NCBI GenBank assembly: GCA_035482455.1
Contig: DATHQS010000357.1
Span: forward strand, 28,654 to 92,653
DNA length: 64,000 nucleotides
From: Candidatus Acidiferrales bacterium
GTDB lineage: Bacteria > Verrucomicrobiota > Verrucomicrobiia > Limisphaerales > UBA11358
Direction of reading: 5' to 3'
The notes below the pieces were generated by a model that saw only the letters and a list, made by a program, of their open reading frames with translations, was not told the origin of the DNA and did not search any database. Below are positions 14,653 through 56,724 of the stretch, in pieces. The position numbers and the translations under genes were made by a program. Each line of letters starts with the position of its first letter. The stretch's first letter is position 1.

Positions 14653-14711
14653 AACTTAAAGCGGTTGCCAGTGCCCCGGCAGTCTGGTAGAAACTGTTCT
14701 CAACAGAGCAG

Positions 14712-14785
14712 GCGGGTGTGGTTCAATGGTAGAATGTGGCCTTCCCAAGGCTGAGACGAGGGTTCGATTCCCTTCACCCGCTCCA
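14712..14785 (+). tRNA. tRNA-Gly (anticodon CCC)
   Basis: Cloverleaf read by eye: acceptor GCGGGTG/CACCCGC, D arm GTTC..GAAT, anticodon stem TGGCC/GGCTG with loop TTCCCAA, T arm GAGGG TTCGATT CCCTT, and an encoded CCA. Confidence 0.9.
14755..14785 (+). repeat. attL: 31-bp core (3' end of tRNA-Gly), identical to 45328..45358
   Basis: gacgagggttcgattcccttcacccgctcca occurs exactly twice in the window, in direct orientation. Confidence 0.9.
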
Positions 14786-14810
14786 TTCATAATCAACGAC
14801 TTATGAATGT

Positions 14811-14830
14811 GTGCAGTAAAAGTGCAGTAA
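14811..14830 (+). promoter_or_regulatory. tandem GTGCAGTAA repeats (putative integrase/excisionase arm-type sites, left arm)
   Basis: gtgcagtaaaagtgcagtaa lies 26 bp inside attL. The same 9-mer recurs near attR at 45239-45267. Confidence 0.5.
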
Positions 14831-14932
14831 ATTAACCCTCCAATACAAAGTTTTTTCTCATGCAATTCCCCTGTAAAACGAGGTGCGTTATTGAGGCGGT
14901 GTGGGGAACAGAACCGTTAAACCCAAAAAAAT

Positions 14933-15241
14933 TCAGGCTTGTTGAAGAATTTGCGCAGCGCGCGGAGGCAGGCTTGATGGGGTAGTAGCAGTATCGCCGT
15001 TGCGATGCGGGAACTTTTCGGAATGAAATCCATTTTGGTCAGTCCGCCACCTGACGAAATCCTGCCAGAAGATCACGCCGCGAAATACGGGAAAACTAGG
15101 TAGCCGAAACCACTCCCGTGCCGTCGAATATGAGATGCCGGCGGCAACGGCAAATTCCTTGGCATTCAGCGCCTGGTCCAAGCGGCGTTTCTCCATGACA
15201 TCCTTTAGCTTGATGCTGCGAAGCTGTTTATCCTGCGGCAT
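14933..15241 (-). CDS. small HTH DNA-binding protein (excisionase/AlpA-like candidate)
   Basis: 102 aa. LNAKEFAVAAGISYSTAREWFRLPSFP is an HTH-like segment. The gene is the first one inside attL. Confidence 0.5.
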   Translation of the reverse strand: MPQDKQLRSIKLKDVMEKRRLDQALNAKEFAVAAGISYSTAREWFRLPSFPVFRGVIFWQDFVRWRTDQNGFHSEKFPHRNGDTATTPSSLPPRAAQILQQA

Positions 15242-44198: not shown

Positions 44199-45233
44199 TT
44201 AAGCCGCAAATTGAACCGCGTCCCGCCATTGCGCCACGTCCTCGACCTTCTCACGCTGGTAGATTTGATGAATCAATTCCGAGGCGTGATTGACCAGACG
44301 CATGGCCGCTTCACGCGGCACGCCCGCGCGACGCAACCGATTGACGTAGGTAACGCGCAGGCAATGGAATGTCAGATGCGTTTTCTTGATCTTGATGAAA
44401 AATTGCTGCCACCGCCGCGACGGTTGAAATGGGAATTCGACGGTAAATTTTTGTTTCGATTTGCGGATGCGTTCCAACAGCGGACGCAAAGCCGTCGGCA
44501 TCGGCACGGAGAACGCCCGATCTTCGCCGCCCTTGGGCGATGGGAACGTGATTTTATTTTCCACAAAATCAATGCAGTTGACCGGAATCCGCGTTTCACG
44601 CAACCGGCAACCGGTGTGCAGGGAAATATCAAAAGCCGTCTGCATCCATTCCGGTTCATCTTTCAACGCGGCCCGAATCTCGCTGATCTCGGCATCGGTC
44701 AATTCCGGCTTTTTAGCCGCCTTGTCCCGTTTCAATTTCATGCTCATCAGTGGATTGGCGTCGGCATGGCCAAGTCGCACCGCTTCACCCATGATCAGGG
44801 CAAATGTTTTTATTTCAAAAATCGCCGTGTTGCGACCAACAGTTTTGCCGGTTTTTTTCTTGTAGCTCGTGCGCCAGTCCAGATATTCAAGGGTGTTGCG
44901 GTAGGTGATGGCACGAGGCGAATGGTAGTGCTTTTCTTGCAGCCAGAACGCCAGCCATTTCCACGCATCAAGGTAACGCTCCAATGTGAGCGGGCTTTCG
45001 CAGTGCCGTTCCAAGTATTGCGGCACCCAGGAATCCCAATTGCCGCCCGTGATTTCGCCGGCAGTGCGATTGAGTTCTTTGGCTTCAAGCTGCGCCCGCA
45101 GGGCGCGCGCCTTGACGGTTTCGCCGGGATTGTCCGCCCGGAAGCCGGTGGATTTGTTGCGTCGTGTGCCGTCGGCGTCAATGAATTGAACAAACCAAAA
45201 CGGCGAGTTTTGCTTTTTATAAATGGATGCCAT
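44199..45233 (-). CDS. tyrosine-type site-specific integrase
   Basis: MASIYKKQNSPFWFVQFIDADGTRRNKSTG (phage-integrase SAM-like N-terminus), C-terminal FHCLRVTYVNRLRRAGV...LVNHASELIHQIYQR (H-x-x-R ... Y). The gene lies 95 bp from attR. Confidence 0.9.
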   Translation of the reverse strand: MASIYKKQNSPFWFVQFIDADGTRRNKSTGFRADNPGETVKARALRAQLEAKELNRTAGEITGGNWDSWVPQYLERHCESPLTLERYLDAWKWLAFWLQEKHYHSPRAITYRNTLEYLDWRTSYKKKTGKTVGRNTAIFEIKTFALIMGEAVRLGHADANPLMSMKLKRDKAAKKPELTDAEISEIRAALKDEPEWMQTAFDISLHTGCRLRETRIPVNCIDFVENKITFPSPKGGEDRAFSVPMPTALRPLLERIRKSKQKFTVEFPFQPSRRWQQFFIKIKKTHLTFHCLRVTYVNRLRRAGVPREAAMRLVNHASELIHQIYQREKVEDVAQWRDAVQFAA

Positions 45234-45238
45234 AGCCA

Positions 45239-45267
45239 GTGCAGTTTGTGCAGTAAGCTTACTGCAC
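45239..45267. promoter_or_regulatory. GTGCAGT(AA) repeats, two direct plus one inverted (arm-type site candidates, right arm / int promoter region)
   Basis: gtgcagtttgtgcagtaagcttactgcac sits immediately upstream of the integrase ATG. The same 9-mer occurs at 14811-14830. Confidence 0.5.
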
Positions 45268-45327
45268 AACATCGCGAAATGCCAGCAAATAAGGCTATTC
45301 CACACCACTTTACACCACTATGCCCGT

Positions 45328-45358
45328 GACGAGGGTTCGATTCCCTTCACCCGCTCCA
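45328..45358 (+). repeat. attR: 31-bp copy of the tRNA-Gly 3' end
   Basis: Exact match to 14755..14785. No upstream tRNA body is present, so it is a remnant or duplication created by integration. Confidence 0.9.
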
Positions 45359-45680
45359 ATTTCAGAATCCCCTGAATCTGCGCGGCGAAATCGTGCAGCC
45401 ACGCAAGAACAAGCGAAACTGCGCATAACCGCGCAAAATAAACCACTTACGAGGTTTTAAACGGCCCTTGCACCCCCATTTGCACATGGCTTAAAAACAT
45501 GCGAAAAGGCCAATAAAACCGCATTGCAGTTTCGGCATAGGGGGTGCAAGGTGCAAAGGATGCGTGGTGATTTCGTGCAAACCAGTGGTGGGGGGTGCAA
45601 AGACTTTTTAGGCACGTTCAAGCGGATCAGGCCGTCCTCTTTAAGAAAGCTTTAAAGGCGTCTATAAGCCGCTAGGGGAA

Positions 45681-45709
45681 ACAAAAAACCGGCCAGGGTT
45701 GCTGGCCGG
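45681..45709 (-). terminator. rho-independent terminator for the leftward operon
   Basis: ccggccag-ggttg-ctggccgg is an 8-bp GC stem followed on the minus strand by TTTTTT. It lies 27 nt downstream of the stop at 45736. Confidence 0.65.
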
Positions 45710-45735
45710 CTGATCTGTCCGCCTGGCTGTGCGTG

Positions 45736-46098
45736 TCAGCCTTCGGGCGCTGGCGTTGCAGACAGTGGCGGCGGTGGCGGAAACACTTTCTTCAGTGCGG
45801 CTGTAACCGCAGCTAAACGGTCAGAATAGGATTCAATGGATGCCACCTTATCTAAAATCCCCTGGCGATCCGCTTCAGCAATGAATGCGGGTTTGTCGCA
45901 CAAATACCGAACCAAGGCCACTTGTGTATCGCCTTGCGATTGCATAACTGTAATCACTTCGGCAACCAGTGCACCGAAGCCTTTTAACTGGTCAAAACCA
46001 AGCCGCTGGCACTCGCCAACAGTTCTAACTTGTGTGTTCAAAAGTTCGACCATTGTTTCTAGCCGCTGGATTTTTTCGCCGTCACTTTCGTAGCTCAC
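45736..46098 (-). CDS. hypothetical protein (120 aa)
   Basis: ORF with a plausible start, co-oriented with the repressor-side operon. No recognisable motif. Confidence 0.5.
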   Translation of the reverse strand: MSYESDGEKIQRLETMVELLNTQVRTVGECQRLGFDQLKGFGALVAEVITVMQSQGDTQVALVRYLCDKPAFIAEADRQGILDKVASIESYSDRLAAVTAALKKVFPPPPPLSATPAPEG

Positions 46099-46109
46099 AA
46101 CATTCCCTT

Positions 46110-46814
46110 TCAGTTATGTGCCGTGGCCGGCGCGGGTTTGGGCATCAGTCCAAGTGAAGGAGCCACGCACAAAAATGCGGTGTGCATTTTGTTCTGGGCT
46201 GCATGGAACGATTTAAACGCCGCGTCAAGCTTGTCACAAAACCGCGCCGGGGCCGTGTGTTCAACCTGAAGCCCAATATGGGTGCATAACATCACACTTT
46301 GCAGATCAACAATGTTCCGCAAACCGCAAACGGCATCTTCCAAATCCCAAGATTTGTTGCGGGAGCTGTAGTAAGCCAGGACCGGCGAAAAATTGAGGCG
46401 GCGCGGATCAACGCTCACCGGCTCGTTAATGCCTTTGATTTTGGCGGCGATGCTCGCCAGGCCAGCGGCCTCATTTGAAATCGCCCGTTTAAAATCACTG
46501 AAGAGGGAGCGCCCCAATTCCACCGCGCCTTCGCAAAAGCCCGGCACATCCAACGATTCCCAACCCGCATGATGATTCACATCGGTGTTGATCCTGTGGG
46601 CGTTCATCATCACCAGTGCCCCGGCCGCGTTCCCCGCGCTTTCCAATAGGGCCAGGGCATCTTCTGCCTCCAGCACGACTTCGGCGGGGATCATTGTTGG
46701 TATTTCAGGCGCAGGCGTATTTTCAGCCGGCGTGGGCTGCCGGCGGGTGGTTTTACGTTGAGAAGTAGCGGGCTTTATGGCACCGTTACGGCGGACTCGA
46801 ATTGTGTTTTTCAT
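46110..46814 (-). CDS. hypothetical protein (234 aa)
   Basis: ORF 11 bp upstream of the next gene. Basic N-terminus, no recognisable motif. Confidence 0.5.
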   Translation of the reverse strand: MKNTIRVRRNGAIKPATSQRKTTRRQPTPAENTPAPEIPTMIPAEVVLEAEDALALLESAGNAAGALVMMNAHRINTDVNHHAGWESLDVPGFCEGAVELGRSLFSDFKRAISNEAAGLASIAAKIKGINEPVSVDPRRLNFSPVLAYYSSRNKSWDLEDAVCGLRNIVDLQSVMLCTHIGLQVEHTAPARFCDKLDAAFKSFHAAQNKMHTAFLCVAPSLGLMPKPAPATAHN

Positions 46815-46875
46815 AACTGATTTGCATGGTTTGGGTCTTTCGGCTCTGGCGATGCGTCAACATCGCCAGGGCCAT

Positions 46876-47772
46876 TTATTTTTGACGCTTCGGATCTGTG
46901 ACCCATGCTTGCATCTGAAGCGTGTATTCGGCTCCAGGCTCCCGCGCAGAATCAGAATCAGTTAGCCACTTTGATAACTGGGTTAAGTCCACGCCTAGAA
47001 ATTTTGCCAGCATGGATTTTGAACCCGAATCAGACGTTGCCTGCTGAATCCGCTTCTTGAGTTTGGGCCATTCGCCTTTCACGCCCTGGACATTGGCTGA
47101 ACTTGTCGCATTAGTCAAGTCCATTAATTCAGGATTAACCGACGTTGCGAACCAAAGCCCCGCTTTCCAGTTTATGAATTCTATTGCCAATGCTGTGCTT
47201 CGTGCCTGTTCCGTTTCTGCACCATCTCCCGGATATTGCTTTAAAAAAGATTCTGCTGCGCCGTCGATGGCAAGCGCAAACTCTGATATTTTATTATCTG
47301 GCACTCGGGCCATCCATTTTTCAATCCACAGTTTTATTTTGGCTGCGACGCCAGCTCTCAGCCTAATTTTGCTCGCATCAAGTTTGATTTTTTCACCGAG
47401 ATTGGCATCTAAACCGAAATGGGATGCCTTTTTATAGCGATCCGCATTCCTGCGACAAACATCAGATAAAAGGGCGTTTTTTGGGAGTCCAGTGTTTTCA
47501 GGAAACGGGAAATATGGGAATTTGCTAAACAATGCTCCAATCTTTCCAGAGGCCAGATATTCCAGGGGAAGTTCGAACTGTGTGTATATACGATAGGCGA
47601 CCTCGTAGCGCAATGGTGTACGGCCGTATTCGATGCTCGCGAGCTGGTCCAGCTTTACCCCAATGTGATCGGCAAAATCGGGCTGCGACCATTTGATACT
47701 CTCTCGAAACCGCTTCACGCGGCCGCAGATCGCGAGTTCTATGGGGTTAATTTTTCCGCTCGGATTTGGCAC
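46876..47772 (-). CDS. XRE/cI-like HTH repressor candidate with a large C-terminal domain
   Basis: ICGRVKRFRESIKWSQPDFADHIGVKLDQLASIEYGRTPL. It is divergent from the rightward ner-like gene. Confidence 0.7.
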   Translation of the reverse strand: MPNPSGKINPIELAICGRVKRFRESIKWSQPDFADHIGVKLDQLASIEYGRTPLRYEVAYRIYTQFELPLEYLASGKIGALFSKFPYFPFPENTGLPKNALLSDVCRRNADRYKKASHFGLDANLGEKIKLDASKIRLRAGVAAKIKLWIEKWMARVPDNKISEFALAIDGAAESFLKQYPGDGAETEQARSTALAIEFINWKAGLWFATSVNPELMDLTNATSSANVQGVKGEWPKLKKRIQQATSDSGSKSMLAKFLGVDLTQLSKWLTDSDSAREPGAEYTLQMQAWVTDPKRQK

Positions 47773-47839
47773 TGCGACATTTTAGCGTAAAAAAAACACA
47801 GCACAAATTTATTGACTCCCAGCGTTTCATGGGATTATT

Positions 47840-48061
47840 TTGCAACAAATGGCTGTTGCCCGCAAGTCAGAGAATCGAGCTAGGCCGCTGGATTTAGACC
47901 GGCGGGCGGCGTTGCTTGGCTGTACGCCCGGACACCTTTCGCGGGTCCTGGCCGGCAAGCGCGAGAGCGCCAGCCTGTTGGCCCGTTTCGCCAAGCTGAT
48001 TGAATCTGAATCCGGTCCCCAAAACAAATCCACCACCACCAAACCCCCGAAAAAATTATGA
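47840..48061 (+). CDS. small Ner-like HTH DNA-binding protein
   Basis: RRAALLGCTPGHLSRVLAGKRESASLLARF. It is the first gene of the rightward operon and its stop overlaps the next start (ATGA). Confidence 0.55.
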   Translation: MQQMAVARKSENRARPLDLDRRAALLGCTPGHLSRVLAGKRESASLLARFAKLIESESGPQNKSTTTKPPKKL

Positions 48062-48537
48062 CCAATCCCCTGCTAGGTTGTGATCCCAAAGAAGTATCGC
48101 CCGCCCGTGCGGGAGCGGTCTTCAGCGAGTTCGCAAAAAATTTATGTACCAAAGACGGTATTGATTTCACCGCCGCCTGGAACAAGGCCAAGGAATTGCA
48201 CCCTGATTTGCACGCCCGCATGTGCGAAGGTTCAGCCAAGCCTTCGACTTTGGACAACGATGAAACCCCGCCGGCCCGGCCTGCGCCGCTCGCCCAAAAG
48301 GCGTTTTTGCTGCCGGCGTTTTATCTGCCGCCAGTCACCAGCGATGAGATTTTTTCCGTTGCGTGGGCTGCCAATGGCAATCAGTCCGTAGCTGTTGATC
48401 CCAAAAAGGTTTTTTTAAAGCTCGTAGCCTACACGATGCAAACGAACGGCCTGAATGCCGCCGATGCCCGCCGCCAGCTTCAAGATAATTTCCCCCAACT
48501 CGCCCGAGCCGCTGGCCAGATGCCGGACCAACAGTGA
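48058..48537 (+). CDS. hypothetical protein (159 aa)
   Basis: Translationally coupled ORF with no motif. Confidence 0.5.
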   Translation: MTNPLLGCDPKEVSPARAGAVFSEFAKNLCTKDGIDFTAAWNKAKELHPDLHARMCEGSAKPSTLDNDETPPARPAPLAQKAFLLPAFYLPPVTSDEIFSVAWAANGNQSVAVDPKKVFLKLVAYTMQTNGLNAADARRQLQDNFPQLARAAGQMPDQQ

Positions 48538-48584
48538 ACCGGCGCTAATCGTCAACGTAATCACCATAACCCACACACACGAAT

Positions 48585-49277
48585 ATGAAACAAAACAAAT
48601 CCATCACCCCGTCGCATCCCTCCGCCCCGACCCGCGCCGAGTTTCTGGCCGGCATGAAGTTGCCGGCAGACACCACCGAAGCGGAATTGACAGCCATTCT
48701 CCAGGCCAACCTTGGCACGCATTTGCCGCTTAAATCCGCCGTTTACACCGCGCTGTTACAGCAGGCTATAACCTACAAGCAGCTTCCCGAAAATGAGGCG
48801 CGGGAATACCTCGCGAAAAAGTTTCCCGATATCAAGCCGCCGGCCCATGGCCGCTCCTTGGATGACGCAGCGGACGCACTGCGCGGGCAGCTCATCAAGA
48901 TTTACGATTTGGCAGCCGATGCGACTGAAGCGGACATCGCCGCCGCCGCCGCCGCCGCGAAGGATCACATCACAAAAACGGAGGCCGAGCGGGCGCAGCA
49001 GGAAGCCGACGAAGCGGTGATCGCCAAAAAAATGAGCGTCGGCCTTACCCGTGAGCAGGCCGTCAATGTCATCCGGCGCCAGCGCGAGCATGATGCGGAA
49101 TTGAAGAGGGGCCAGGATGAACGCCGCCCGCGCCTGCTGGAAATCATCGGAGGATGCCGGGCATTTTCGCTGGAAGAGCTGAAGCAGGCTCGCAAGCAGG
49201 CCCGCGACCTGTACCCCTTCCTGGATAGCAGTGAATTCACCCAGGCTCTCGACGAAGTAAAGGCCGCCCGCGCCTGA
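48585..49277 (+). CDS. hypothetical protein (230 aa, Ala/Glu-rich helical)
   Basis: ORF in the rightward operon with no motif. Confidence 0.5.
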   Translation: MKQNKSITPSHPSAPTRAEFLAGMKLPADTTEAELTAILQANLGTHLPLKSAVYTALLQQAITYKQLPENEAREYLAKKFPDIKPPAHGRSLDDAADALRGQLIKIYDLAADATEADIAAAAAAAKDHITKTEAERAQQEADEAVIAKKMSVGLTREQAVNVIRRQREHDAELKRGQDERRPRLLEIIGGCRAFSLEELKQARKQARDLYPFLDSSEFTQALDEVKAARA

Positions 49278-49537
49278 AATTTTATGGATGTGACGAACGC
49301 TCTGTTTCACGGCCGGTTGGGTCTATCGAATTCGGGACCCAAGGGCTGCTTCTTTGTGTTCGCCGGCCGCCCGGCACCTGCTAGGGGTGGCTGCTGGCCG
49401 TGGCCGGTGAGCGCGGCCAGCGCAATTTATTTAGTCGCATTAACAATTTTGGATGCCTGGAGGAGGTCGTCCAAAACACGGCGGGGAGGTCCGGGTATTT
49501 ATCCGGCTTCCCCGCCACTTTGAATCTTAACGAAGCT

Positions 49538-50137
49538 ATGAAAACCCTCCCCGCTTCCAATTCAATTCCCGCCTGGCAAATCGAGCGCGCCGCCAAGTTG
49601 CAACGCGCCTGCCTCTGCATCAAGGGCGCGATCCAGCGCGGCGAGAAAATCCGGAAAGCCATCCGCCGCACTTCGCGCCGCTATCATGGCCGGCCCTTTA
49701 AGGCCGGTTTAAAGCATCGCATGGCGCTCACGCCGGCAACGCTTCGCCGTTTATATGACGCCTGGCAACAGGCCGGGGAAAAGCCCTCAGCGTTCAGACT
49801 GGGTTATAGCGCCCGTCCGCCGTATCTGCCGCGCAAGCTGATGCTGCGCTTTGCTGCTTACTGCGCGGCCAACCGGCTGCCGTCCGTTCGCGTGGCCTGG
49901 CTGAAATTTTCCAGCCGTCCACAAAACGGCCGGGCGCAGGAATTCACCTATGGCCAGGTGACATATAGTTTCACCGCCGCCAATTTTTACCGGATGCAAG
50001 AGCAACTGCGGTTGATCGAGCAGGCGCAGGCCGAGCTGGACCGGATCAGGCTGCTGGCCGGCGCGGAGATCACGGATCGTCTGCCACTGAACCCACCGCG
50101 CCGGCGCATCGAGCCGGGGAACGGTTTTCAAATATGA
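49538..50137 (+). CDS. hypothetical basic protein (about 199 aa)
   Basis: I prefer the ATG at 49538 (MKTLPASNSIPAWQIER...); the track ORF opens at 49400. The stop overlaps the next start. Confidence 0.45.
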   Translation: MKTLPASNSIPAWQIERAAKLQRACLCIKGAIQRGEKIRKAIRRTSRRYHGRPFKAGLKHRMALTPATLRRLYDAWQQAGEKPSAFRLGYSARPPYLPRKLMLRFAAYCAANRLPSVRVAWLKFSSRPQNGRAQEFTYGQVTYSFTAANFYRMQEQLRLIEQAQAELDRIRLLAGAEITDRLPLNPPRRRIEPGNGFQI

Positions 50138-50592
50138 TGCGCGCCAGCCCCCAACCATCATTCGATGCGATCCTGACAGCCATCGCAGTAAAATCCGCGA
50201 TGGTGCGCACGGATAGCGTGCAGACGTTTTGCGGATTGAACGTGGAAAAAATCAGCCACGGGATTCAAGAGGGCCGTTTCCAATGGGTCTGGGATTTAAA
50301 CCTTGGGGACAATCGCCGGCGCGAGCTGCGTTTTTTGGCCCTGGAGGTTTTCCGGCCGGAAATCACCAAGTCCTTTACGCTGGAAGATGCCATCCGGGTG
50401 GTATTGGGGGAAACCCGCCAAAGCTTCGTTAGCGGGGATATTGTTCGGCGCTTCCGTATATCCCGCGTCTCTTTAAGCCGCCTGCATCGCGGTGGCTACC
50501 TGGTTGGCACCATTTCGGGCGGCGGATTCACTACAACCCGCCCGGCCCTGGAAACCTTCCTGCGCCAGCGGTGGATCGGAGGGGGACAATGA
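50134..50592 (+). CDS. hypothetical protein with C-terminal excisionase/MerR-like HTH candidate
   Basis: GDIVRRFRISRVSLSRLHRGGYLVG. Confidence 0.45.
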   Translation: MMRASPQPSFDAILTAIAVKSAMVRTDSVQTFCGLNVEKISHGIQEGRFQWVWDLNLGDNRRRELRFLALEVFRPEITKSFTLEDAIRVVLGETRQSFVSGDIVRRFRISRVSLSRLHRGGYLVGTISGGGFTTTRPALETFLRQRWIGGGQ

Positions 50593-50766
50593 ACTTTCCC
50601 GGTTTTACCAGTTTGCCCGCCAGCCTGCGCAAAACCGGCCGGGGGGCGTCGAGACACCTCCAAAGCCCCAAGGGCGGCTTAAATGGCTTAAATGAGGGCA
50701 AGGCGTCGATTCTGGCACCGAGCCTGACTGTCCCAAAACCGCAAACTTTAACCACCCCCTGAATTT

Positions 50767-52383
50767 ATGGGAGATCACCTTTTTAAAATTAAACTCGAGG
50801 CCACCGGGAACGCCGCCGATGAGGTTAAGGCTTTAAACAAGGAAATGGGGGTAGTGATCGTGACTGCCGAGGATGTCAGCAAAGCCACGGGAAAAACGGG
50901 CGAGGCCGCCGAAATGTCCCACCGGTCATTCCGACACCTGGCCCATACTCTTGGCCATGAAATCCCCGGGGCGGCCGCGCTGATGGAGGCGGGCTTTGAA
51001 GGCAGCACCGAGCCGATGATGGGCGCAACCTTTCTCCTGATCGCCGGCATCGAAATGCTGCGCACGGCCATTGAGAAAGTTAATAAAGAACAGGCGGAAT
51101 CCAAAAAAATCGGCGAGGCGTTGAATGATTTGGATGGGGAACGATCCAAGGCCGTGGAGAAAACCCGCGACGCTTTGGACGAGGCGGAAACGGCGGAAGC
51201 GGTTTTTTATCATAACTTCATCCGCAACACCGAAGATGCCATCGGCAAGGCGTCCGCCCTGGCTCAAGCCATCCTTAAAACCAGGACCGGAACCGGGGAG
51301 GCAAATGACAGCGCCAGCAAGGGCATCGCGGAAAAGAACATTGAGGACATGGAGCAGCACGGCGTGATAAGCCACGCATCCGCGCTCAAGATGAAAGAGC
51401 AGCTTGATATTGAATATGAGCAGCGAAAGCTGGTGCGGATGATTGCCCAAGATGCGGTGGAGCGCGAAATTTTGATCAATCAGTTCCAGAACAAAAGCCT
51501 GGATGTGGACAAGGATGGAAGGGCTGAAAAATCCGCCGAAGAGCGGTTCAAGGCCGCCACGGCCGCGAAGGTGCAGAGCGACACCAAGCTAGAAGAGGCA
51601 CAGCATAAAATCGCCGGGGGTGAAGGCATCATCAAAGATTTGCGCGCCACAGGGGTCACGGATGAGAACATTGACAAGCTCCGCACATCTTATGAAAGAG
51701 TTTCCGGCAAGCCGGCCATGGGAAAAGGTGCGGCATCATTAGAAGATCAATTTCACTATCTCTCGACGCACTGGATCGGAACCGAAACCGCTCCGCAGGA
51801 TTATTTGGGCACCCAGGGCGATGCCAACCTTGCGATGTACGAAGGCGCTCAAATTGACGTTGCTTCTGGAAAATTTGACCTGGCCAGGCTTCAGAAAAAT
51901 AAGCCTGACTTGGATACCGGGGCGGCCCTGGCAAAATCCGATCTTGAAGCCGCCCGGCAGAGGATGGAAGCGGACCGAAAAGAGGCGCAGGCACTCAAGG
52001 ATAAGATTGCCGAGTCAGATGCAACGAACGCACTCAAGGAGGGTGGTGCTAAATCAGATTTGGGCATGCGCCGGGCGAGCGGTGAATTGATGGCAGACCG
52101 TGGCATTGCCGACCGGGTACAGGCCGGCGGGGCGGTATCGGGTGCCGAGCAGCAAAAGATAATTGCCGATGCCAGCCGCATTGCCGGGCATACCGTTGAT
52201 CTTAAAACTGCCGCGCAAATCATTGAGCATGGCGCAAAAAATATCGGTGCTTTCATGGAACAGGTTTCCCGCCTTTCGGCTGTTTTAGGCCAATTCGGCC
52301 CGGCGCAGACAGAGAATTTGCAACGCCAGATCGATGAGCTGCGCGGAAAAATCAAAACCTCCCGAAATGATTTTACGGGATAG
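50767..52383 (+). CDS. 538-aa coiled-coil protein, function unknown
   Basis: Long Ala/Glu/Lys/Gln-rich helical sequence lying immediately upstream (3-nt gap) of the transposase gene. Confidence 0.55.
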   Translation: MGDHLFKIKLEATGNAADEVKALNKEMGVVIVTAEDVSKATGKTGEAAEMSHRSFRHLAHTLGHEIPGAAALMEAGFEGSTEPMMGATFLLIAGIEMLRTAIEKVNKEQAESKKIGEALNDLDGERSKAVEKTRDALDEAETAEAVFYHNFIRNTEDAIGKASALAQAILKTRTGTGEANDSASKGIAEKNIEDMEQHGVISHASALKMKEQLDIEYEQRKLVRMIAQDAVEREILINQFQNKSLDVDKDGRAEKSAEERFKAATAAKVQSDTKLEEAQHKIAGGEGIIKDLRATGVTDENIDKLRTSYERVSGKPAMGKGAASLEDQFHYLSTHWIGTETAPQDYLGTQGDANLAMYEGAQIDVASGKFDLARLQKNKPDLDTGAALAKSDLEAARQRMEADRKEAQALKDKIAESDATNALKEGGAKSDLGMRRASGELMADRGIADRVQAGGAVSGAEQQKIIADASRIAGHTVDLKTAAQIIEHGAKNIGAFMEQVSRLSAVLGQFGPAQTENLQRQIDELRGKIKTSRNDFTG

Positions 52384-52386
52384 CCA

Positions 52387-54867
52387 ATGTCTAAAGCACT
52401 AAACACATTCACCGCCGCGCAGATCGCCGCCGCCCTGGGCGTCAAGCGCCAGGCCGTGCAATGGCATCTGCGCGATGTGTTGCCGGCCGGCGTGCAGATC
52501 GTCGCCGGCAATGAGGCCGCCGCGTGGACGGTGGATCAGTTGCCGGCATCACTGGACGCTGTTGCCCGCGAGAAGGGATTTCGAGATGCCGGCGCTGCCG
52601 TCATGGCAAGCCAGGCACTTAAAGAAGGAGGGGGAAAAGCTGGCGCTCTCTGCCGCTGCCAGTTGCCGTCGCCCTTGCCCTTGGAAAAAATCTGCGACGA
52701 AGATATTCAGGCGGCTTGCAAGTTGCGCGAGGCTCTGCGCCCCTGGCTGATTGATTATGCGCGGCACGATTTGACACGCGGCGCGGCCGAGCAACGCGGC
52801 GTTCAAGATTATCGAAGGATTTTCGGGCATGAAATTTCTCCACGCTATTGGCGGGAGCTGCTTGAGCGTGGCCGCCAGCGTGACAATGGATTGGAACAAT
52901 GGGACACACTATCTCTCTACTTGCCGGGCCGTGTGCGCCCCAAGGTGACTGCTGCCGATGTGGTGTCTGAAGCGCTGGCGTCTGATTTTAACGATCTGCA
53001 AAAGTTCATTGATGGATGCAGCAACCCGGCAAACTTGTCTGAACAGGAGCGCGAAGGATTATGGGTGCTGGCCATGCGAAAACATTTTGAATTGATCCGT
53101 GCCGGCGCTTGCGAATCATCCTCCAGCCGGCGCGTCCGTGAATTTCTTTTTGCCCGCGTGAAGTGCCTGGCTCCAACATCAAACGCATTGCGCATGGCCT
53201 TTGAACGCCGGCGGGCGGCGTGGAATCCGGAACAGCCTGACTCAATCCAGGATGGCCGGAAGCAGAATGGAATCCGTTTTAACTATTCTCCAAAAGACGT
53301 GCGCCGGGTGAGGCATTCGGCCGCGACAAAAAACGGGGGTCGCATCGATGCCGCCTGGCGTGAGGAATATAACCGGCTGTCAGCGGAAACCCGCCAGCGG
53401 CATCCGTATTCAAGGCGCTGTCCCCATGCGTTTTTAAAGCAGGTCAACCGCGAGAAGGTGGATGCGCTGTATCTGCTGTCAGAAAAAGGCAAACGCGCAT
53501 TGCGCGGCTCCATCGGCGGCGTTGAGCGCTCTGCCGAGTCTGTCAAATCGATGGATCGCTGGGCGGTGGATGATTGGACATCTAACGTGGTGGTGCGATT
53601 CAAAAACGCAGACGGAACCGAATCGTTGATCCAACCCCAAATTATAACAGTGATGGATTTTGCCAGCCGCAAATGGGTTGCCTGCATTATGTCAAATGAC
53701 AAAGGCCCAAACACGCGCCTGGTGAATACTGCAATCCTGAACGGTTTCAAGCGCCACGGAGTGCCGAGGCAGCTTTGGCTGGAAAATGGATTCGTGTTCG
53801 GAAAGTCACTTGAGATCAATGGCAAGGTGGATGAACAAGGCCGCACCGTTACCGCCGGCCTGGCACAATACGGCTGCACGGTCCATCATTTCGACAAGAT
53901 GAGTCCAACCAGCAAGGGGGAGTTGGAAAAATCTTTTGACCTGGTGCAACGCCAGATGGAGCGGCATCCCGGTTATGGTGGCCGCCTGCAAATGACGGAC
54001 GCATCCGAGACATTTAAACGCGAACAGCGCCTGATTCAGTCAGGCAAAATGGATGCGCAAAAATGCCGCTATACGTTTGATGAGTTTGTCCTCGCCATGC
54101 GTGACCTGGTGAAACAATACAACTCCACGCCCCAATATGGCCTGCTTGATGGGATGACTCCGGACGAAGCTTTTCAGGCCAAGGCCAGAGCCGATGATCC
54201 GCCGATCCGGTTTGATGGGCAACTTGAATGGATGCTGGTGAACAAGCGGGAACTGGTCACGGTTGAAGCCGGGGGCGTCAAAATTCCCCGCCTAAAAATT
54301 ACCGTGCGTGGCGGCGAGCTGCTGAATCATATTGGCGAGGAACTTTGGGCGCTGATAGATCGCGAGGATGATTCAATGGTAACATTCATGTCGCAGGATT
54401 ATTTATCAGCATTCACGGTCGAGACCTGCCAACGGCCCGCTGCGAACGCTTCCACCATGGCCGATTGTGCCGTCATGGCAGCAGAGCTAAAAAAGAGAAG
54501 CGCGCACGAACGCGCAGTTGGCGATGAATTAAAAAACCTCCGCACGGAGTTTGGAAATCCGCGGGTGGATTTGCTCAACCATTACCGGCTGAAATCCGGA
54601 GGAATGACGCAAGCCGTTCGTGAGCCGGAAAGTGGCAAAGAACCTTCCCGGCTGGTTCTCATCGACCCTGTTGTGCAATCCAGCGCGAATATGATGGAAG
54701 CGCAAAGAGAAGCCATCCGCGCCGGACGGAAAGTTAAGGAGCACAAGCAGCGCCGGGCATCGAAGGTCACCCAAGAGACCGGGCTTAGTTATTCGCCCGA
54801 TGGATTGTCCAATCTCTCCCCGGAGCATATTCGCAAACTGATTGCCGCAACCAAAAAAAGCATATGA
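52387..54867 (+). CDS. Mu A-like DDE (rve-type) transposase
   Basis: N-terminal HTH (FTAAQIAAALGVKRQAVQWHL). Integrase core WAVDDWTSNV...ITVMDFASRKWV...SPTSKGELEKSF (D, D, E). 826 aa. Confidence 0.75.
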   Translation: MSKALNTFTAAQIAAALGVKRQAVQWHLRDVLPAGVQIVAGNEAAAWTVDQLPASLDAVAREKGFRDAGAAVMASQALKEGGGKAGALCRCQLPSPLPLEKICDEDIQAACKLREALRPWLIDYARHDLTRGAAEQRGVQDYRRIFGHEISPRYWRELLERGRQRDNGLEQWDTLSLYLPGRVRPKVTAADVVSEALASDFNDLQKFIDGCSNPANLSEQEREGLWVLAMRKHFELIRAGACESSSSRRVREFLFARVKCLAPTSNALRMAFERRRAAWNPEQPDSIQDGRKQNGIRFNYSPKDVRRVRHSAATKNGGRIDAAWREEYNRLSAETRQRHPYSRRCPHAFLKQVNREKVDALYLLSEKGKRALRGSIGGVERSAESVKSMDRWAVDDWTSNVVVRFKNADGTESLIQPQIITVMDFASRKWVACIMSNDKGPNTRLVNTAILNGFKRHGVPRQLWLENGFVFGKSLEINGKVDEQGRTVTAGLAQYGCTVHHFDKMSPTSKGELEKSFDLVQRQMERHPGYGGRLQMTDASETFKREQRLIQSGKMDAQKCRYTFDEFVLAMRDLVKQYNSTPQYGLLDGMTPDEAFQAKARADDPPIRFDGQLEWMLVNKRELVTVEAGGVKIPRLKITVRGGELLNHIGEELWALIDREDDSMVTFMSQDYLSAFTVETCQRPAANASTMADCAVMAAELKKRSAHERAVGDELKNLRTEFGNPRVDLLNHYRLKSGGMTQAVREPESGKEPSRLVLIDPVVQSSANMMEAQREAIRAGRKVKEHKQRRASKVTQETGLSYSPDGLSNLSPEHIRKLIAATKKSI

Positions 54868-56366
54868 ACACACGACGCGCCACTGACGGATCGTTTCACC
54901 AGAGCCGCTTCGCCAGCTCGCCGGAATTCAATCACGGCCTGGCTGTGAACCTTGTAGAAATGCGGGTTGCCGTCCTGGATGACCCGGCCATGCGCGAACT
55001 GATCTGGTGGGTTCAATACCAGTCACACCAGCCTGGCGGCCTCGCTGCGTTTGCAAGAGAGTTGATCGCTAAATATCCCGCCAGGATTCAAACGCAGGGA
55101 ATGTTGGATCTCGGATTAAAGCCGGGAGAACTTCACACCTCAACAACAGTAAAAAAACTCCGGCACCATATGCCGCTGGAGGCAAGGTGCCAATTTTATC
55201 TAGCGGGTGAACGTGATTTGGATTATTGGGGAGCCCCTTCTGAGCCGCCCGATGATTATCCTTCAGAAAAATTCATAGAGGTTTGCCATGCGGCCGCCCG
55301 GCAAAATTTGGAAAAGGATTTGAAGGAATTGTGTTTGAACCCGGATGGAGCAGGCTTGTCGCCATGGTATTTCCCGCGCTTGGTAGAGACTTTGATGGAG
55401 GTCAAGCGCTTGTCCGAGTCAGAATCTTCCGGCCTGGTGAAAACATCCGCCACCAGCATGGTGCACGATTTTCTTGATTACACGCAGAACACTGGCGGCC
55501 TTACCCTGCTCACCGGCCCGTCAAATGTTGGTGCGAAATTCGCCGCCCGTGAGTGGTGTCAGCGCCGGCCCGGCCGTGCGCGGTTTGTTGAAGTGCCGCC
55601 ATCGAATGACGAAGCCAGTTTTTTCCGCACTATCGGCAAGGCTTTGGGTGGGAACTTTACCAATTACAAAAATGTGCAGATACGCGAACGGGTTGAATCC
55701 GTTTTGCAATCCGCGGACATCATGCTCGTTTTGTTCGCCGCGCAGAATCTCTGGCCGCAAAAAAATCTCCGCGAGGCTTTCCCGACAAGGCTTGCCTGGC
55801 TCATTGATCAAACTGAAAAAGGCGCGGCGGTTGGCATGATTTCCGGCCCGCAATTTTTCATGCAGAAGCGTTCGTGCGACAAATCCGCATGGGATACAGA
55901 GGAACTGCAAGGTGTGTTCGCCCATGTTGCCGCCCTGCCAGTGGCTCTGACGGTGGAAGAAATGACCAGCATAGCCCGCGCCGTGCTGCCCGCTGCCACT
56001 GATGATGATTGCGAATTGATAGCGATCAGCGCCGTGGGTTCAGAGCGCTATTTGGCCAACCTGGATGCCACCGCCAAACGCGCCCAATTCTTGGCTGACA
56101 GGACCGGCCGTGGAGAAATGACCACGGGTCACATCGGCCAGGCCATCGCGATTGTGAACCAGTCCGAAACACTGCTTAAAGCGGCCTTGGCTGATAATCC
56201 GAAGGCTCGCAAACGTCAGCCGGCCGCATCGGCCGCCCGTCCAGGATCGGAAGAGATCACGCCCGCGCCCGGCCGGAATTTTGCAGCCGCGCAAGATTCA
56301 GCCCCGGCCATCGCGCCCAGATCGGCGCGGGGAGGTGTTTTAATACACCAGGCCAATGCCGTTTAA
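54864..56366 (+). CDS. MuB/TniB-like AAA+ target-selection protein, NTP-binding motifs apparently degenerate
   Basis: LTLLTGPSNVGAKFAAREW sits where the P-loop is expected (G-x4-G-A-K-F, not GK[ST]). ADIMLVLFAAQNLW sits where Walker B is expected. The start overlaps the transposase stop (ATGA). Confidence 0.55.
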   Translation: MNTRRATDGSFHQSRFASSPEFNHGLAVNLVEMRVAVLDDPAMRELIWWVQYQSHQPGGLAAFARELIAKYPARIQTQGMLDLGLKPGELHTSTTVKKLRHHMPLEARCQFYLAGERDLDYWGAPSEPPDDYPSEKFIEVCHAAARQNLEKDLKELCLNPDGAGLSPWYFPRLVETLMEVKRLSESESSGLVKTSATSMVHDFLDYTQNTGGLTLLTGPSNVGAKFAAREWCQRRPGRARFVEVPPSNDEASFFRTIGKALGGNFTNYKNVQIRERVESVLQSADIMLVLFAAQNLWPQKNLREAFPTRLAWLIDQTEKGAAVGMISGPQFFMQKRSCDKSAWDTEELQGVFAHVAALPVALTVEEMTSIARAVLPAATDDDCELIAISAVGSERYLANLDATAKRAQFLADRTGRGEMTTGHIGQAIAIVNQSETLLKAALADNPKARKRQPAASAARPGSEEITPAPGRNFAAAQDSAPAIAPRSARGGVLIHQANAV

Positions 56367-56724
56367 CGGCCCTTAAAAGACCCTTTTACCGGGTTTAACC
56401 CGGAGACATTTAGAACCTGCTTTTACACCCGCTGAATGGGTGCGTGATTCGTCTTGCCAAAAGTTTCGGAACAGATTCAAAGGTTTTTGCACGAAATTAA
56501 CGGCCTTTTACACCGGATGCGCCCCGAAACTTGGGATGGTTTGCATCCGCATCAAATCATTTATTATTAAATCATTGCAAAAACAATTTCTTAAGTAACT
56601 ATTTGGTTATTTATGAAACCGCCCGCCGGCTTGGACAGTCTGTTGCTATTGTCCGGAAGTTGATTGATAGTGTGCGGCAGGACATTTTTACGAACGGAAA
56701 AATTGAGATTGAAAGGAACTAAAA

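Follow-up and report, generated by a model that had tools for sequence, protein, structure and literature searches.

A putative tRNA-targeting transposable element of the Mu/Tn7 type from a Verrucomicrobiota-type metagenome assembly

A 64-kb stretch of DNA (64,000 nucleotides, hereafter the window) contains a set of genes reminiscent of the early region of phage Mu, inserted right next to a sequence that a preliminary description had called attR. The same description placed this unit at 45380-56560 and offered two interpretations, a decayed transposable prophage or a compact transposon or satellite. Which kind of mobile element is this, and why does it lie at this position? We consider it quite probable that positions 45373-56512 are a complete copy of a member of a family of compact, tRNA-targeting transposable elements with a Mu/Tn7-type transposase pair. 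The genes listed earlier were recovered at their coordinates in an ORF check, apart from corrections of starts (Table 1).

Table 1. Features of the element and its left flank (positions in the window)
Feature	Position	Strand	Remarks
tRNA-Gly(CCC) gene	14712-14785		
Integrase gene of the neighbouring island	44199-45308		
31-bp copy of the tRNA-Gly(CCC) 3' end, T-arm to CCA	45328-45358	+	exact repeat of 14755-14785
Spacer, 14 nt, tRNA 3' end to left terminus	45359-45372	.	relatives' spacers 12-22 nt
Left terminal site L1, 5'-TGAATCTGCGCGGCGAAATCGTGCAG	45373-45398	+	aligns with relatives' left terminus TGAGTCTC...
GCGnAA-type short repeats, ~10 bp spacing, then IHF-consensus-like motif	45399-45450	+	direct sequence reading
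Inverted repeat CCCTTGCACCCCC (45465-45477) / GGGGGTGCAAGG (45540-45551)	45465-45551	.	around a reversed end-like site
Internal left-end site L2 (TGCAAAGGATGCGTGGTGATTTCGTGCAAACC)	45552-45583	+	oriented as L1; holds 11-mer TTTCGTGCAAA of the right terminal site
Terminator-like hairpin, 10-pair stem then T run	45687-45711	-	end of leftward operon
Accessory protein, 120 aa	45736-46098	-	homologues in left arms of L002, L016, L028
Accessory protein, 234 aa	46110-46814	-	homologous to non-RadC part of larger L023, L028 left-arm proteins
Repressor-like regulator, 298 aa	46876-47772	-	N-terminal HTH_3 (Pfam 1e-7); PHROG repressor families
Promoter-like site of rightward operon, TTGACT-18-TATTTT	47812-47841	+	consensus match only
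Small helix-turn-helix (HTH) protein, 70 aa	47849-48061	+	ner/cro-like by position only
Conserved protein c7, 159 aa	48058-48537	+	homologues in L020, L026, L028, L030; no family match
Ala/Glu/Lys-rich protein, 230 aa	48585-49277	+	no Pfam/PHROG match
Core protein c4, about 200 aa	49538-50137	+	start from 9-sequence alignment
Core protein c3, 152 aa	50134-50592	+	alignment
Coiled-coil protein, 538 aa	50767-52383	+	orphan family confined to these elements
Transposase A, 826 aa	52387-54867	+	MuA/TnsB superfamily
B protein, 500 aa	54864-56366	+	MuB/TnsC-type AAA+ fold, helical N-terminal extension of ~190 aa
Right end	56367-56512	-	terminus set by alignment of 13 right ends; L015/L016 agree
Terminal site R1, ...GCACGAAATTAACGGCCTTTTACA-3'	56487-56512		within right end
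Two more GTAAAAG-type sites	about 56420-56452 and 56366-56390		in right end
Palindrome CCGGGTTTAACCCGG	56389-56403		in right end

Comparison of about 40 related loci (numbered with the prefix L) put the termini at 45373 and 56512, which gives an element of 11,140 bp with the form 5'-TG...CA-3' and replaces the earlier limits, which this alignment proved wrong. The right terminus, 146 bp past the B gene, is the point up to which 13 loci can be aligned (as far as ...CTTTTACA), with divergence immediately beyond; L015 and L016 are 100% identical across 11,441 bp to ...TTTTACA and unrelated from the next base on. The left ends of the relatives open with a conserved TGAGTCTC-type terminus. A left terminus at 45552, where the internal, right-end-like sequence TGCAAAGG... 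begins, was dropped because the left ends of the relatives align at TGAGTCTC beside tRNAs. L1 and the reverse complement of the right terminus are equal at 16/30 positions, TG and TCGTGCA among them. The short motifs that had been seen in several inverted copies at both extremities are real, with motifs of the GGTGYAAARG type clustered at each end, and the 11-mer TTTCGTGCAAA has just two exact occurrences in the 64-kb window, at 45571-45581 (+) and 56486-56496 (-), where ~0.03 exact copies would be expected by chance. End alignments and shared motifs thus confirmed Mu-style TG...CA ends with several internal sites. In the left end, the phased repeats lead to an IHF-consensus-like motif, AAATAAACCACTTAC, at 45436-45450; L009, L016, L026, L028 and L032 likewise have equivalent repeats and a WATCAANNNNTTR-like motif in their left ends, and we infer that they may function there. 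The inverted-repeat architecture to their right recurs in L004, L016, L020, L042 and L043.

The same comparison revealed where these elements insert. The left terminus lies 12-22 nt past the 3' end of a tRNA, in the form of either a gene or a 3' fragment; the tRNAs are Gly, Val (4 loci), Leu, Arg-ACG, Arg-CCG and Glu, always with the tRNA on the same strand, and three other elements share one position ~90 bp upstream of nrdR. One insertion orientation, left end toward the target, is found throughout. Perfect 4-bp target duplications (GAAT, GCAT, TCTA, CTCG, CCGT, TGGT and CAGG) flank 7 of the 12 relatives, against ~0.05 expected by chance, in a set that comes entirely from metagenome assemblies, so that some flank junctions may be assembly joins. 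A duplication of 5 bp, as had been expected, was discarded in favour of 4 bp on the evidence of every junction inspected, and for the window copy no 4-bp duplication was found (CCCC on the left vs CCGG on the right). A public-sequence look-up via the downstream HlyD-like protein gave solely contigs that carry this element at the identical junction; an empty site was not among them, and the exact window element has one insertion site in these sequences. The comparison of loci establishes the ends, target position, orientation and 4-bp duplication of the family as far as these can be read from sequence.

Both ends could be mapped in 12 non-redundant relatives. All of these are compact (8,960-13,719 bp) with an unchanged gene order, even where transposase identity falls to 30%; they are bounded by host genes and have intact ORFs and precise conserved termini. 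The transposase has 118 homologue clusters at 90% identity. Searches of 50,697 phage genomes and of IMG/VR turned up no relative of the transposase; the elements as such are likewise absent from IMG/VR, and no sequence similarity between the element and the 50,697 phage genomes could be detected. So far, the family has been found solely in Verrucomicrobiota-type metagenome assemblies; a description of such elements was not found in the searchable literature, and the family of small mobile elements is apparently undescribed. With defined ends, site- and orientation-specific insertion and compact relatives, the evidence favours the 'compact transposon or satellite' interpretation.

Since single-sequence searches of Pfam, NCBIfam and PDB were uninformative, profiles and structure prediction were needed to characterize A and B. 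A alone had no match in Pfam (including the rve and Mu-transposase models), NCBIfam or PDB. It matched the PHROG Mu-type transposase family phrog_310 (5e-32), and a profile of 51 A sequences matched ShCAST TnsB (3e-11), the top sequence match of A among solved structures, and MuA (8e-7). The AlphaFold model of A (pLDDT 79) contains an RNase-H-like core, and its top Foldseek matches are Mu transpososome and TnsB structures (2e-13). Family, profile and fold matches agree with the earlier assignment of A as a DDE transposase; the term 'Mu-like' is justified for the proteins by their fold only, and A is about equally near Tn7-family TnsB and MuA in both sequence and structure. Residues D395, D396, E466 and E514 are invariant in 51/51 sequences, and we propose the putative catalytic triad D395(/D396)-E466-E514, i.e. 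D-E-E with Glu as the second residue. We infer catalytic competence with some reserve, because Glu replaces Asp, the model has low confidence between E466 and E514, and HMMER pairs TnsB D287 with N478. A literature search for DEE-motif transposases returned an unrelated relaxase paper alone. A would bind several sites in the two imperfectly inverted TG...CA ends.

The model of B (pLDDT 85) gave the MuB filament (4e-7) and TnsC (6e-7) as the first Foldseek matches, and the B sequence matched the PADLOC type V-K TnsC model (1.6e-4). The description of B as MuB/TniB-like therefore holds for its fold and its position after A, but its ATPase motifs are gone: Walker A reads GPSNVGAKF, with the Lys lost, and Walker B reads VLFAAQ, with the Asp-Glu lost. 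Because of these losses the window copy may be immobile, and it could be a true family member but a dead copy, fixed, non-transposing and kept by chance or domesticated. The missing 4-bp duplication, the missing capsid or protease gene of the relatives and the one insertion site found for the exact element would fit such a fate. However, 11/11 ORFs are intact and A retains every invariant residue. The loss of the ATPase motifs is common to at least 14 diverged full-length B homologues from two sub-clades, a conservation that points to a working, ATP-independent B and not to decay; L053 is one of the relatives that share these dead motifs, and there the gene set is complete and the right terminus can be recognised. 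The duplication is also missing in L016, which has an identical copy elsewhere. We therefore regard a dead copy as rather unlikely, although it is the alternative to be taken most seriously.

Two natural exchanges between A and B bear on the choice of target. The A cores of L016, inserted at tRNA-Arg, and L020, inserted at nrdR, are 94% identical, whereas their B proteins are just 57% identical, and B of L016 clusters with B of tRNA-inserted elements (66-71%). The A core of L032 is 80% identical to that of the tRNA-Val clade, and its B is 59% identical to B of L042; L032 and L042 are both inserted at tRNA-Arg(CCG). Proteins c3 and c4 track the phylogeny of A and not the target, whereas B tracks the target. 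Since B, unlike A, groups by insertion target, it is a candidate target selector, in a case made up of two natural A/B swaps with which linked features (right end, small ORFs) could co-vary too. B would help to join the ends to a fixed target, the tRNA 3' flank or, in one sub-lineage, the region upstream of nrdR, and the choice of target probably lies with B, by way of its N-terminal extension, rather than with TniQ/TnsD or a guide RNA. Neither TniQ/TnsD nor TnsE nor Cas selectors were matched by the element proteins in Pfam, PHROG, NCBIfam and PADLOC, TnsA was not matched in Pfam and PHROG, and Rfam gave no match in the element. Targeting by a guide RNA was rejected, as the longest match between the tRNA and the element interior is 9-11 nt, which is the chance level.

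These results bear on whether the element is an ordinary Tn7-family transposon with a TniQ/TnsD analogue hidden among its unassigned genes (c3, c4 and c7 could include a selector) and with phage-like genes of the relatives as cargo. The element resembles the members of this family without TnsA (type V-K CAST, Tn5053-like), in which a TnsB-like transposase is combined with a TnsC-like AAA+ adaptor, insertion is into a fixed attachment site, often a tRNA gene, in one orientation, and multi-site ends close on the right in ...ACA; the V-K CAST and Tn5053 branches lack TnsA as well. The ShCAST TnsB and type V-K TnsC matches point in the same direction. Unlike these transposons, the element has no detected TniQ/TnsD or Cas domain, Cas12k, CRISPR array or guide-like match, its duplication is 4 bp and not the 5 bp of Tn7, and its left terminus is TGA... 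and not TGT.... The adaptor itself co-varies with the target, whereas c3 and c4 do not. The supposed cargo occupies fixed positions, follows the order of phage virion modules and is homologous to real phage genes, and every family member has a repressor switch of the phage type. An ordinary Tn7-family transposon is thus improbable.

The switch is formed by the repressor gene and the small HTH gene divergent from it. The earlier identification of an XRE/cI-like repressor is supported by the Pfam and PHROG matches; an RstR-like NCBIfam match (3e-5) is under the model cutoff. The repressor is present in every relative and is very divergent (14-60% identity). The adjacent gene had been called ner-like from an ORF starting at 47840. 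This longer ORF does give HTH matches, albeit weak ones (HTH_31, 0.0099; phrog_3642, 0.005), but no Ner-family match was obtained in Pfam, PHROG or NCBIfam, and publicly available gene calls for this element (L040) give a 70-aa protein, whose start maps to 47849; homologues occupy the same position in L019, L026 and L028. As judged from the gene layout, the repressor would silence expression, facing the small HTH gene and the rightward operon, in an arrangement that resembles the immunity switch of temperate phages. In the left arm, the 120-aa accessory protein had no family match in Pfam, PHROG, PADLOC or NCBIfam, and none was found for the 234-aa protein itself.

In the rightward operon, the gene called at 49400 (245 aa) exists, but its start is most likely 49538, and the encoded core protein c4 is accordingly shorter. 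Core protein c3 looks like two excisionase-type winged-helix DNA-binding modules, and its homologues in L042 and L053 have a faint HTH_17 match; neither c3 nor c4 had a match in PDB profiles, PHROGs, Pfam (distant representatives included) or known phages. The 230-aa protein takes up a variable position at which relatives encode a capsid or a gpI protease/scaffold protein, and from this location it may have a scaffold-like role. The 538-aa protein has just 20 homologues, none with a Pfam domain; its family gave a PHROG match in 0/17 members and has no relative in IMG/VR, and the family HMM reaches solely L004, L016, L028 and L035. It sits at the position of tape-measure-like proteins of relatives, where the L026 counterpart matches the tape-measure family phrog_24 (2.9e-27), but a tape-measure assignment was rejected, as profile homology to the L026 and L030 tape-measure-like proteins is absent.

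Pfam and PHROG searches bore out the earlier statement on missing phage modules: neither capsid nor tail, terminase or lysis genes were detected in the window copy, and tblastn with the capsid proteins of relatives was also negative. Relatives carry HK97 capsid (MCP), Mu gpI-like protease/scaffold, neck protein and tape-measure-like genes, some of them homologous to genes of real tailed phages; the homologues are the MCP (50-59% identical), a post-MCP protein and a protein matching the phage tail-completion/Neck1 gene, in the order seen in the phages. Some relatives have faint GemA-like genes after B.

Could the element be what is left of a transposable phage that was formerly full-size, with the late genes lost and only the early region retained? 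The set of repressor, small HTH protein, A and B does resemble the Mu early region, and the window copy has neither virion genes nor a target duplication and contains an ATPase-dead B. Mu-type phages (Mu, D3112/B3-like) share with the family the order of a MuA-fold transposase and a MuB-fold AAA+ gene, TG...CA ends with several internal sites, the divergent XRE-type repressor with a small HTH gene and, in relatives, the gpI-type and GemA-like genes. They differ from it in size (about 37 kb vs 9-14 kb in all 12 mapped relatives, which have no complete virion or lysis module), in the place of the transposition genes (beside ner, near the left end, in Mu vs the right end here), in near-random insertion vs site- and orientation-specific insertion, in a 5-bp vs a 4-bp duplication, and in the second catalytic Asp, which is Glu in A; the window-clade B is ATPase-dead. 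Moreover, the mapped relatives are all compact and host-bounded, with the same gene order, intact ORFs and conserved termini, no full-size relative was found among 118 A homologues, 50,697 phage genomes and IMG/VR, and the loss of the B motifs is clade-wide in full-length proteins and not a single lesion. The decayed-prophage interpretation was therefore not supported, and we consider it very improbable.

The position next to 'attR' was described correctly: the 31 bp in question are the tRNA-Gly 3' end. They form the distal repeat of the integrase island and close it at 45358, on the left side of the element; the island is an integrase-driven relaxase/defence island that entered the same tRNA, not a prophage. 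Since the tRNA 3' flank is the family's own target, it is no coincidence that the element adjoins this repeat, and the tRNA 3' end is the likely recognition context for its insertion. No integrase was found inside 45373-56512 or in relatives, and on the right, beyond 56512, there is no further repeat derived from the tRNA. That tyrosine-integrase recombination produced the tRNA adjacency, with the element as the distal part of the island, is scarcely credible: an integrase gene and the 31-bp repeat do lie directly to the left, but that direct repeat ends the island before the element begins, and relatives lie beside intact tRNA genes, without an integrase or a far-end tRNA repeat and with 4-bp duplications.

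Within the preferred reading of a compact tRNA-targeting transposable element, the presence of phage head and tail genes in relatives raises the possibility that these elements are phage satellites moving by transposition. We propose tentatively that a Mu/Tn7-type transposase pair replaces the integrase and primase-replicase of such satellites, a possibility that we rate below an even chance. As in P4-like satellites, PICI and capsid-forming PICI, the size is 9-14 kb, the attachment sites are of the tRNA type, the master repressor is divergent, the left arm carries variable accessory genes, and the partial virion gene set of relatives is homologous to that of real phages and in the same order. 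Unlike them, the element has no integrase, excisionase or primase-replicase, so that the transposase/AAA+ pair would both integrate and replicate it, and homologues of virion genes cannot be recognised in the window copy. The family is tied to tailed phages by the virion genes of relatives, in slots that orphan coiled-coil proteins occupy in the window copy, where these substitutes would stand in for the virion modules. A satellite of this kind would be repressed behind the tRNA gene and de-repressed by a helper tailed phage, would replicate or be mobilised by transposition, with the partial virion modules taking over helper particles, and in a new cell would home to the tRNA flank via B as its own target selector, which in the window lineage would act without ATP hydrolysis. 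No helper phage was found within the window.

The family has been hidden from current annotation although it comprises 118 transposase clusters (90% identity) and, in an exhaustive search, 286 representative clusters of core protein c4; as neither Pfam nor NCBIfam recognises the transposase, the family would have been overlooked in surveys of Tn7-like and Mu-like elements. Here transposition is targeted, in a naturally occurring system, without TniQ/TnsD or CRISPR, and the AAA+ adaptor appears to hold the specificity. Natural swaps have retargeted elements between tRNA-Arg, tRNA-Val and nrdR, and the ATPase motifs have been abandoned by an entire clade, which bears on how adaptors of the MuB/TnsC type link the recognition of a target with activation of the transposase, and on the design of compact programmable inserters. 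The invariant Glu as second catalytic residue would be unusual for an enzyme of the MuA/TnsB fold and is testable. If the satellite proposal is true, these elements would be, to our knowledge, the first satellite type that integrates by DDE transposition.

Homologues of the 826-aa protein of the element (hereafter A) fell into 118 clusters, every one of metagenome or MAG origin, and the taxonomy-labelled records were mostly from Verrucomicrobiota; neither IMG/VR nor a set of 50,697 deposited phage genomes yielded a relative of A. For comparison, we fetched 39 loci around A homologues and added others later (L numbers below). The right ends of the relatives align through a conserved ...CTTTTACA and diverge at the next base. 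Two loci from two lake metagenomes, L015 (1-11441) and L016 (2827-14267), share 11,441 bp at 100% identity through ...TTTTACA, have unrelated flanks beyond, and therefore represent one element in two contexts; either the element moved recently or the assembler attached different flanks to two copies. This pair and the conserved right-end break place the right terminus of the window element at 56512. The left ends of the relatives share a TGAGTCTC-type terminus, whose window counterpart is TGAATCTG at 45373. The limits of 45380 and 56560 given in the preliminary description were corrected accordingly, and the alignment defined the 5'-TG...CA-3' termini that had been expected, for an element of 11,140 bp.

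The terminal 30 nucleotides of the two window ends match at 16 positions in inverted orientation. Further end-like sites lie inside both ends, in agreement with the short motifs noticed there earlier. The exact 11-mer TTTCGTGCAAA occurs in the window only at 45571 (+) and 56486 (-). The left end also contains phased short repeats, an IHF-consensus-like motif and a conserved inverted repeat. Just past the stop codon of the last gene, the palindrome CCGGGTTTAACCCGG (56389-56403) is kept in most aligned right ends, even between otherwise diverged elements, and could act as a terminator stem or be bound by a protein.

The ORF listing of the window bore out the gene set already described. The small helix-turn-helix gene called 'ner-like' occupies the position implied by that name, but its weak matches do not extend the likeness to homology.

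Genes of the window element (c7, c4 and c3 are conserved protein families of the rightward operon)
Feature	Coordinates	Strand	Evidence
Leftward gene	45736-46098	-	ORF listing
Leftward gene	46110-46814	-	ORF listing
Leftward gene, 298 aa, N-terminal HTH_3	46876-47772	-	Pfam 1e-7; PHROG repressor families matched
Small HTH gene, rightward operon	47849-48061	+	Weak helix-turn-helix matches
Rightward operon gene (c7)	48058-48537	+	ORF listing
Rightward operon gene, 230-aa protein	48585-49277	+	ORF listing
Rightward operon gene (c4)	49538-50137	+	ORF listing
Rightward operon gene (c3)	50134-50592	+	ORF listing
Rightward operon gene, 538-aa protein	50767-52383	+	ORF listing
Rightward operon gene, A	52387-54867	+	ORF listing
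Rightward operon gene, B (500 aa)	54864-56366	+	ORF listing

Protein A had no match in Pfam, NCBIfam or a single-sequence PDB search, and public records therefore label it hypothetical. It matched the PHROG transposase family phrog_310 (5e-32), and a profile of 51 A sequences matched ShCAST TnsB (3e-11) and the Mu transposase (8e-7). The AlphaFold model (mean pLDDT 79) contains an RNase-H-like core, a beta-barrel and C-terminal helices, and its top Foldseek matches were the Mu transpososome (2.4e-13) and TnsB complexes. Based on the PHROG, profile, model and Foldseek results, A is a transposase. Residues D395, D396, E466 and E514 are invariant in the 51 sequences (28-57% identity to the window A). 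Since E466 is invariant and directly follows the beta-4-equivalent strand, inside the canonical h-h-h-[D/E]-N-G motif, we read the predicted catalytic triad as D-E-E, with the caveats that segment 471-510 of the model is of low confidence and that HMMER places the second Asp of TnsB opposite N478, a position never acidic in the family. D482, acidic in 48/51 sequences, is the fallback candidate for the second catalytic residue.

The elements of the window, L009, L011/L030, L013/L033, L016, L023, L026, L028, L032, L042 and L043 have their left terminus 12-22 nucleotides downstream of a tRNA gene or tRNA 3' fragment, counted from its 3' end. The target tRNAs are Gly, Val, Leu, Arg-ACG, Arg-CCG and Glu. 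In each of these loci the tRNA is on the same strand and the left end of the element points toward it, and the T-arm GGTTC was found 37-41 nucleotides from the terminus in eight of the nine cases measured first. Three other elements (L004, L018 and L020) occupy one common position ~90 bp upstream of nrdR. A target duplication had been anticipated at 5 bp. Perfect duplications were indeed present at 7 of 12 elements, but they are of 4 bp (GAAT, GCAT, TCTA, CTCG, CCGT, TGGT and CAGG); one further element has a 4-bp duplication with a single mismatched base, and comparison of the junctions revealed none at the window copy, L016, L023 or L028. Joining of copies to different flanks by the assembler could also account for the absent duplications at some loci. 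In L004, a second, remnant left end (14244-15080), with the same inverted-repeat architecture and a similar terminal site, directly follows the TGGT duplication at the right end; the nrdR site thus took up two elements in tandem, which speaks against a decayed resident conferring strong target immunity.

The only tRNA gene found in the window is tRNA-Gly(CCC) (14712-14785), the last 31 nucleotides of which are repeated exactly at 45328-45358. Between the two repeats (14786-45327) lies an integrase island encoding a TrwC relaxase, an SNF2/PLD helicase, an Eco57I/MmeI-type methylase, AbiEii, a UvrD-like helicase, GmrSD-HNH, a dCTP-deaminase-like protein, ParB, a large serine recombinase, Fic and a tyrosine integrase. 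This region is an integrative defence island, probably mobilisable, and not a prophage. An HlyD/AcrB efflux operon is located downstream of the element. Because tRNA flanks are the usual target of the family, the position beside the 31-bp copy, previously noted as insertion next to attR, is explained simply: the position stands, the element occupies the tRNA-Gly flank as a normal target, and a separate integrase island has entered the same tRNA. Elements behind a mere tRNA 3' fragment were observed at three loci (window 45328-45358, L028 ~2447-2457 and L042 ~1680-1706), where the tRNA body was displaced by another integrated element. Integrase islands and this transposon family share these tRNA genes as insertion hotspots.

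No TniQ/TnsD, TnsA or Cas protein was detectable among the element proteins. Targeting by a guide RNA was rejected, as the longest match between any element and its tRNA was 9-11 nucleotides and no Rfam match was obtained. Pairwise identity tables showed that the MuB/TnsC-like partner of A (hereafter B) groups by target, whereas the other shared proteins do not. The AAA+ part of B is 79-86% identical among the nrdR-site elements. L016 (tRNA-Arg) and L020 (nrdR) have A cores that are 94% identical and B proteins that are only 57% identical, and the L016 B falls with the B proteins of elements at tRNA sites. The A core of L032 is 80% identical to the tRNA-Val clade. L042 encodes one of the most distant A homologues (36% identity to the window A), and the B proteins of L032 and L042 are 59% identical; both elements reside at tRNA-Arg(CCG). 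Therefore, we infer from these sequence comparisons that B carries the target specificity, with the right end, small ORFs or other linked features as possible alternative carriers.

The sequence matches of B are weak (AAA_22, 0.0055; phrog_296, 8.6e-8; PADLOC V-K TnsC model, 1.6e-4), and the best structural matches of its model (pLDDT 85) are the MuB filament (4e-7, TM 0.73 on target) and TnsC. In the model, an extra helical region of ~190 aa precedes the AAA+ domain, and the proposed target specificity of B probably resides in this N-terminal extension. Most relatives contain G..R.GK[ST] and [VLI][VLI]DE.[HQ]; the Walker A and B motifs of the window B read GPSNVGAKF and VLFAAQ. The same pattern occurs in five homologues (47-70% identity) and is thus not private to the window. 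A sister group combines G..S.GQ[ST]F with VLN[HRQ]AE, and more distant members have canonical motifs. Judged by these motifs, the window B is predicted to be ATPase-dead, as is its whole clade.

The window copy belongs to the family with high confidence. All its ORFs are intact and A retains every invariant residue; conversely, it has no target duplication, its B is predicted to be ATPase-dead, and a single insertion context and no empty site were found for it. The copy may or may not still be mobile.

The element shares with Mu the folds of A and B, the multi-site TG...CA ends and the repressor layout, but differs in size, virion genes, target randomness and duplication length, and lacks a Ner homologue and the ATPase motifs of B. 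With the Tn7 family it has in common the TnsB/TnsC-like pair and a fixed attachment site, but not TniQ/TnsD, TnsA or the 5-bp duplication. Such elements were not described in the full-text literature searched, including the main survey of Tn7 target selectors. We place the element among the Mu/Tn7-superfamily transposable elements, as an undescribed variant. In some distant relatives, B is followed by extra small genes (L054 2398-4388, L042 14124-14567 and L053 11725-12225), one of which has a faint GemA match; those of L054 resemble the Mu semi-essential early region more, and a transitional, more Mu-like arrangement may exist among these relatives.

Gene order is conserved in the family: left-arm accessory genes and the repressor, then divergently the small HTH gene, c7, a variable slot, c4, c3, a second variable slot, A and B. 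The first slot holds an HK97-fold capsid gene in L002, L004, L007 and L033, a Mu gpI-type protease/scaffold gene in L016, L018, L023 and L053, and small coiled-coil proteins in the window (the 230-aa protein) and L020. The second encodes a tape-measure-like protein in L026 (phrog_24, 2.9e-27) and, weakly, in L030, and elsewhere fast-evolving coiled-coil proteins such as the window 538-aa protein, an orphan family of 20 homologues with no domain or PHROG match. No virion-gene homologue was detectable in the window copy, and no helper phage within the window. The L002 capsid is 50-59% identical to capsids of IMG/VR contigs (37-59% across L044, L046, L051 and L052). These four are tailed-phage contigs (GC 0.59-0.62) with homologues of the L002 post-capsid and Neck1-like proteins in the same order as in L002, and a PHROG scan of L051 identified terminase, portal, protease, head-tail adaptor and tail-completion genes. 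They represent a lineage of candidate helpers for the relatives with capsid genes. Known phage satellites resemble the element in size, residence site and regulatory layout, and its relatives in partial virion modules, but the element lacks an integrase and a replicase. The size of 9-14 kb, the residence at tRNA genes, the universal repressor switch and the phage-derived partial virion modules would fit a phage-satellite lifestyle. On these sequence features, the element could plausibly be a transposing phage satellite, in which the adaptor protein would also be the target selector.
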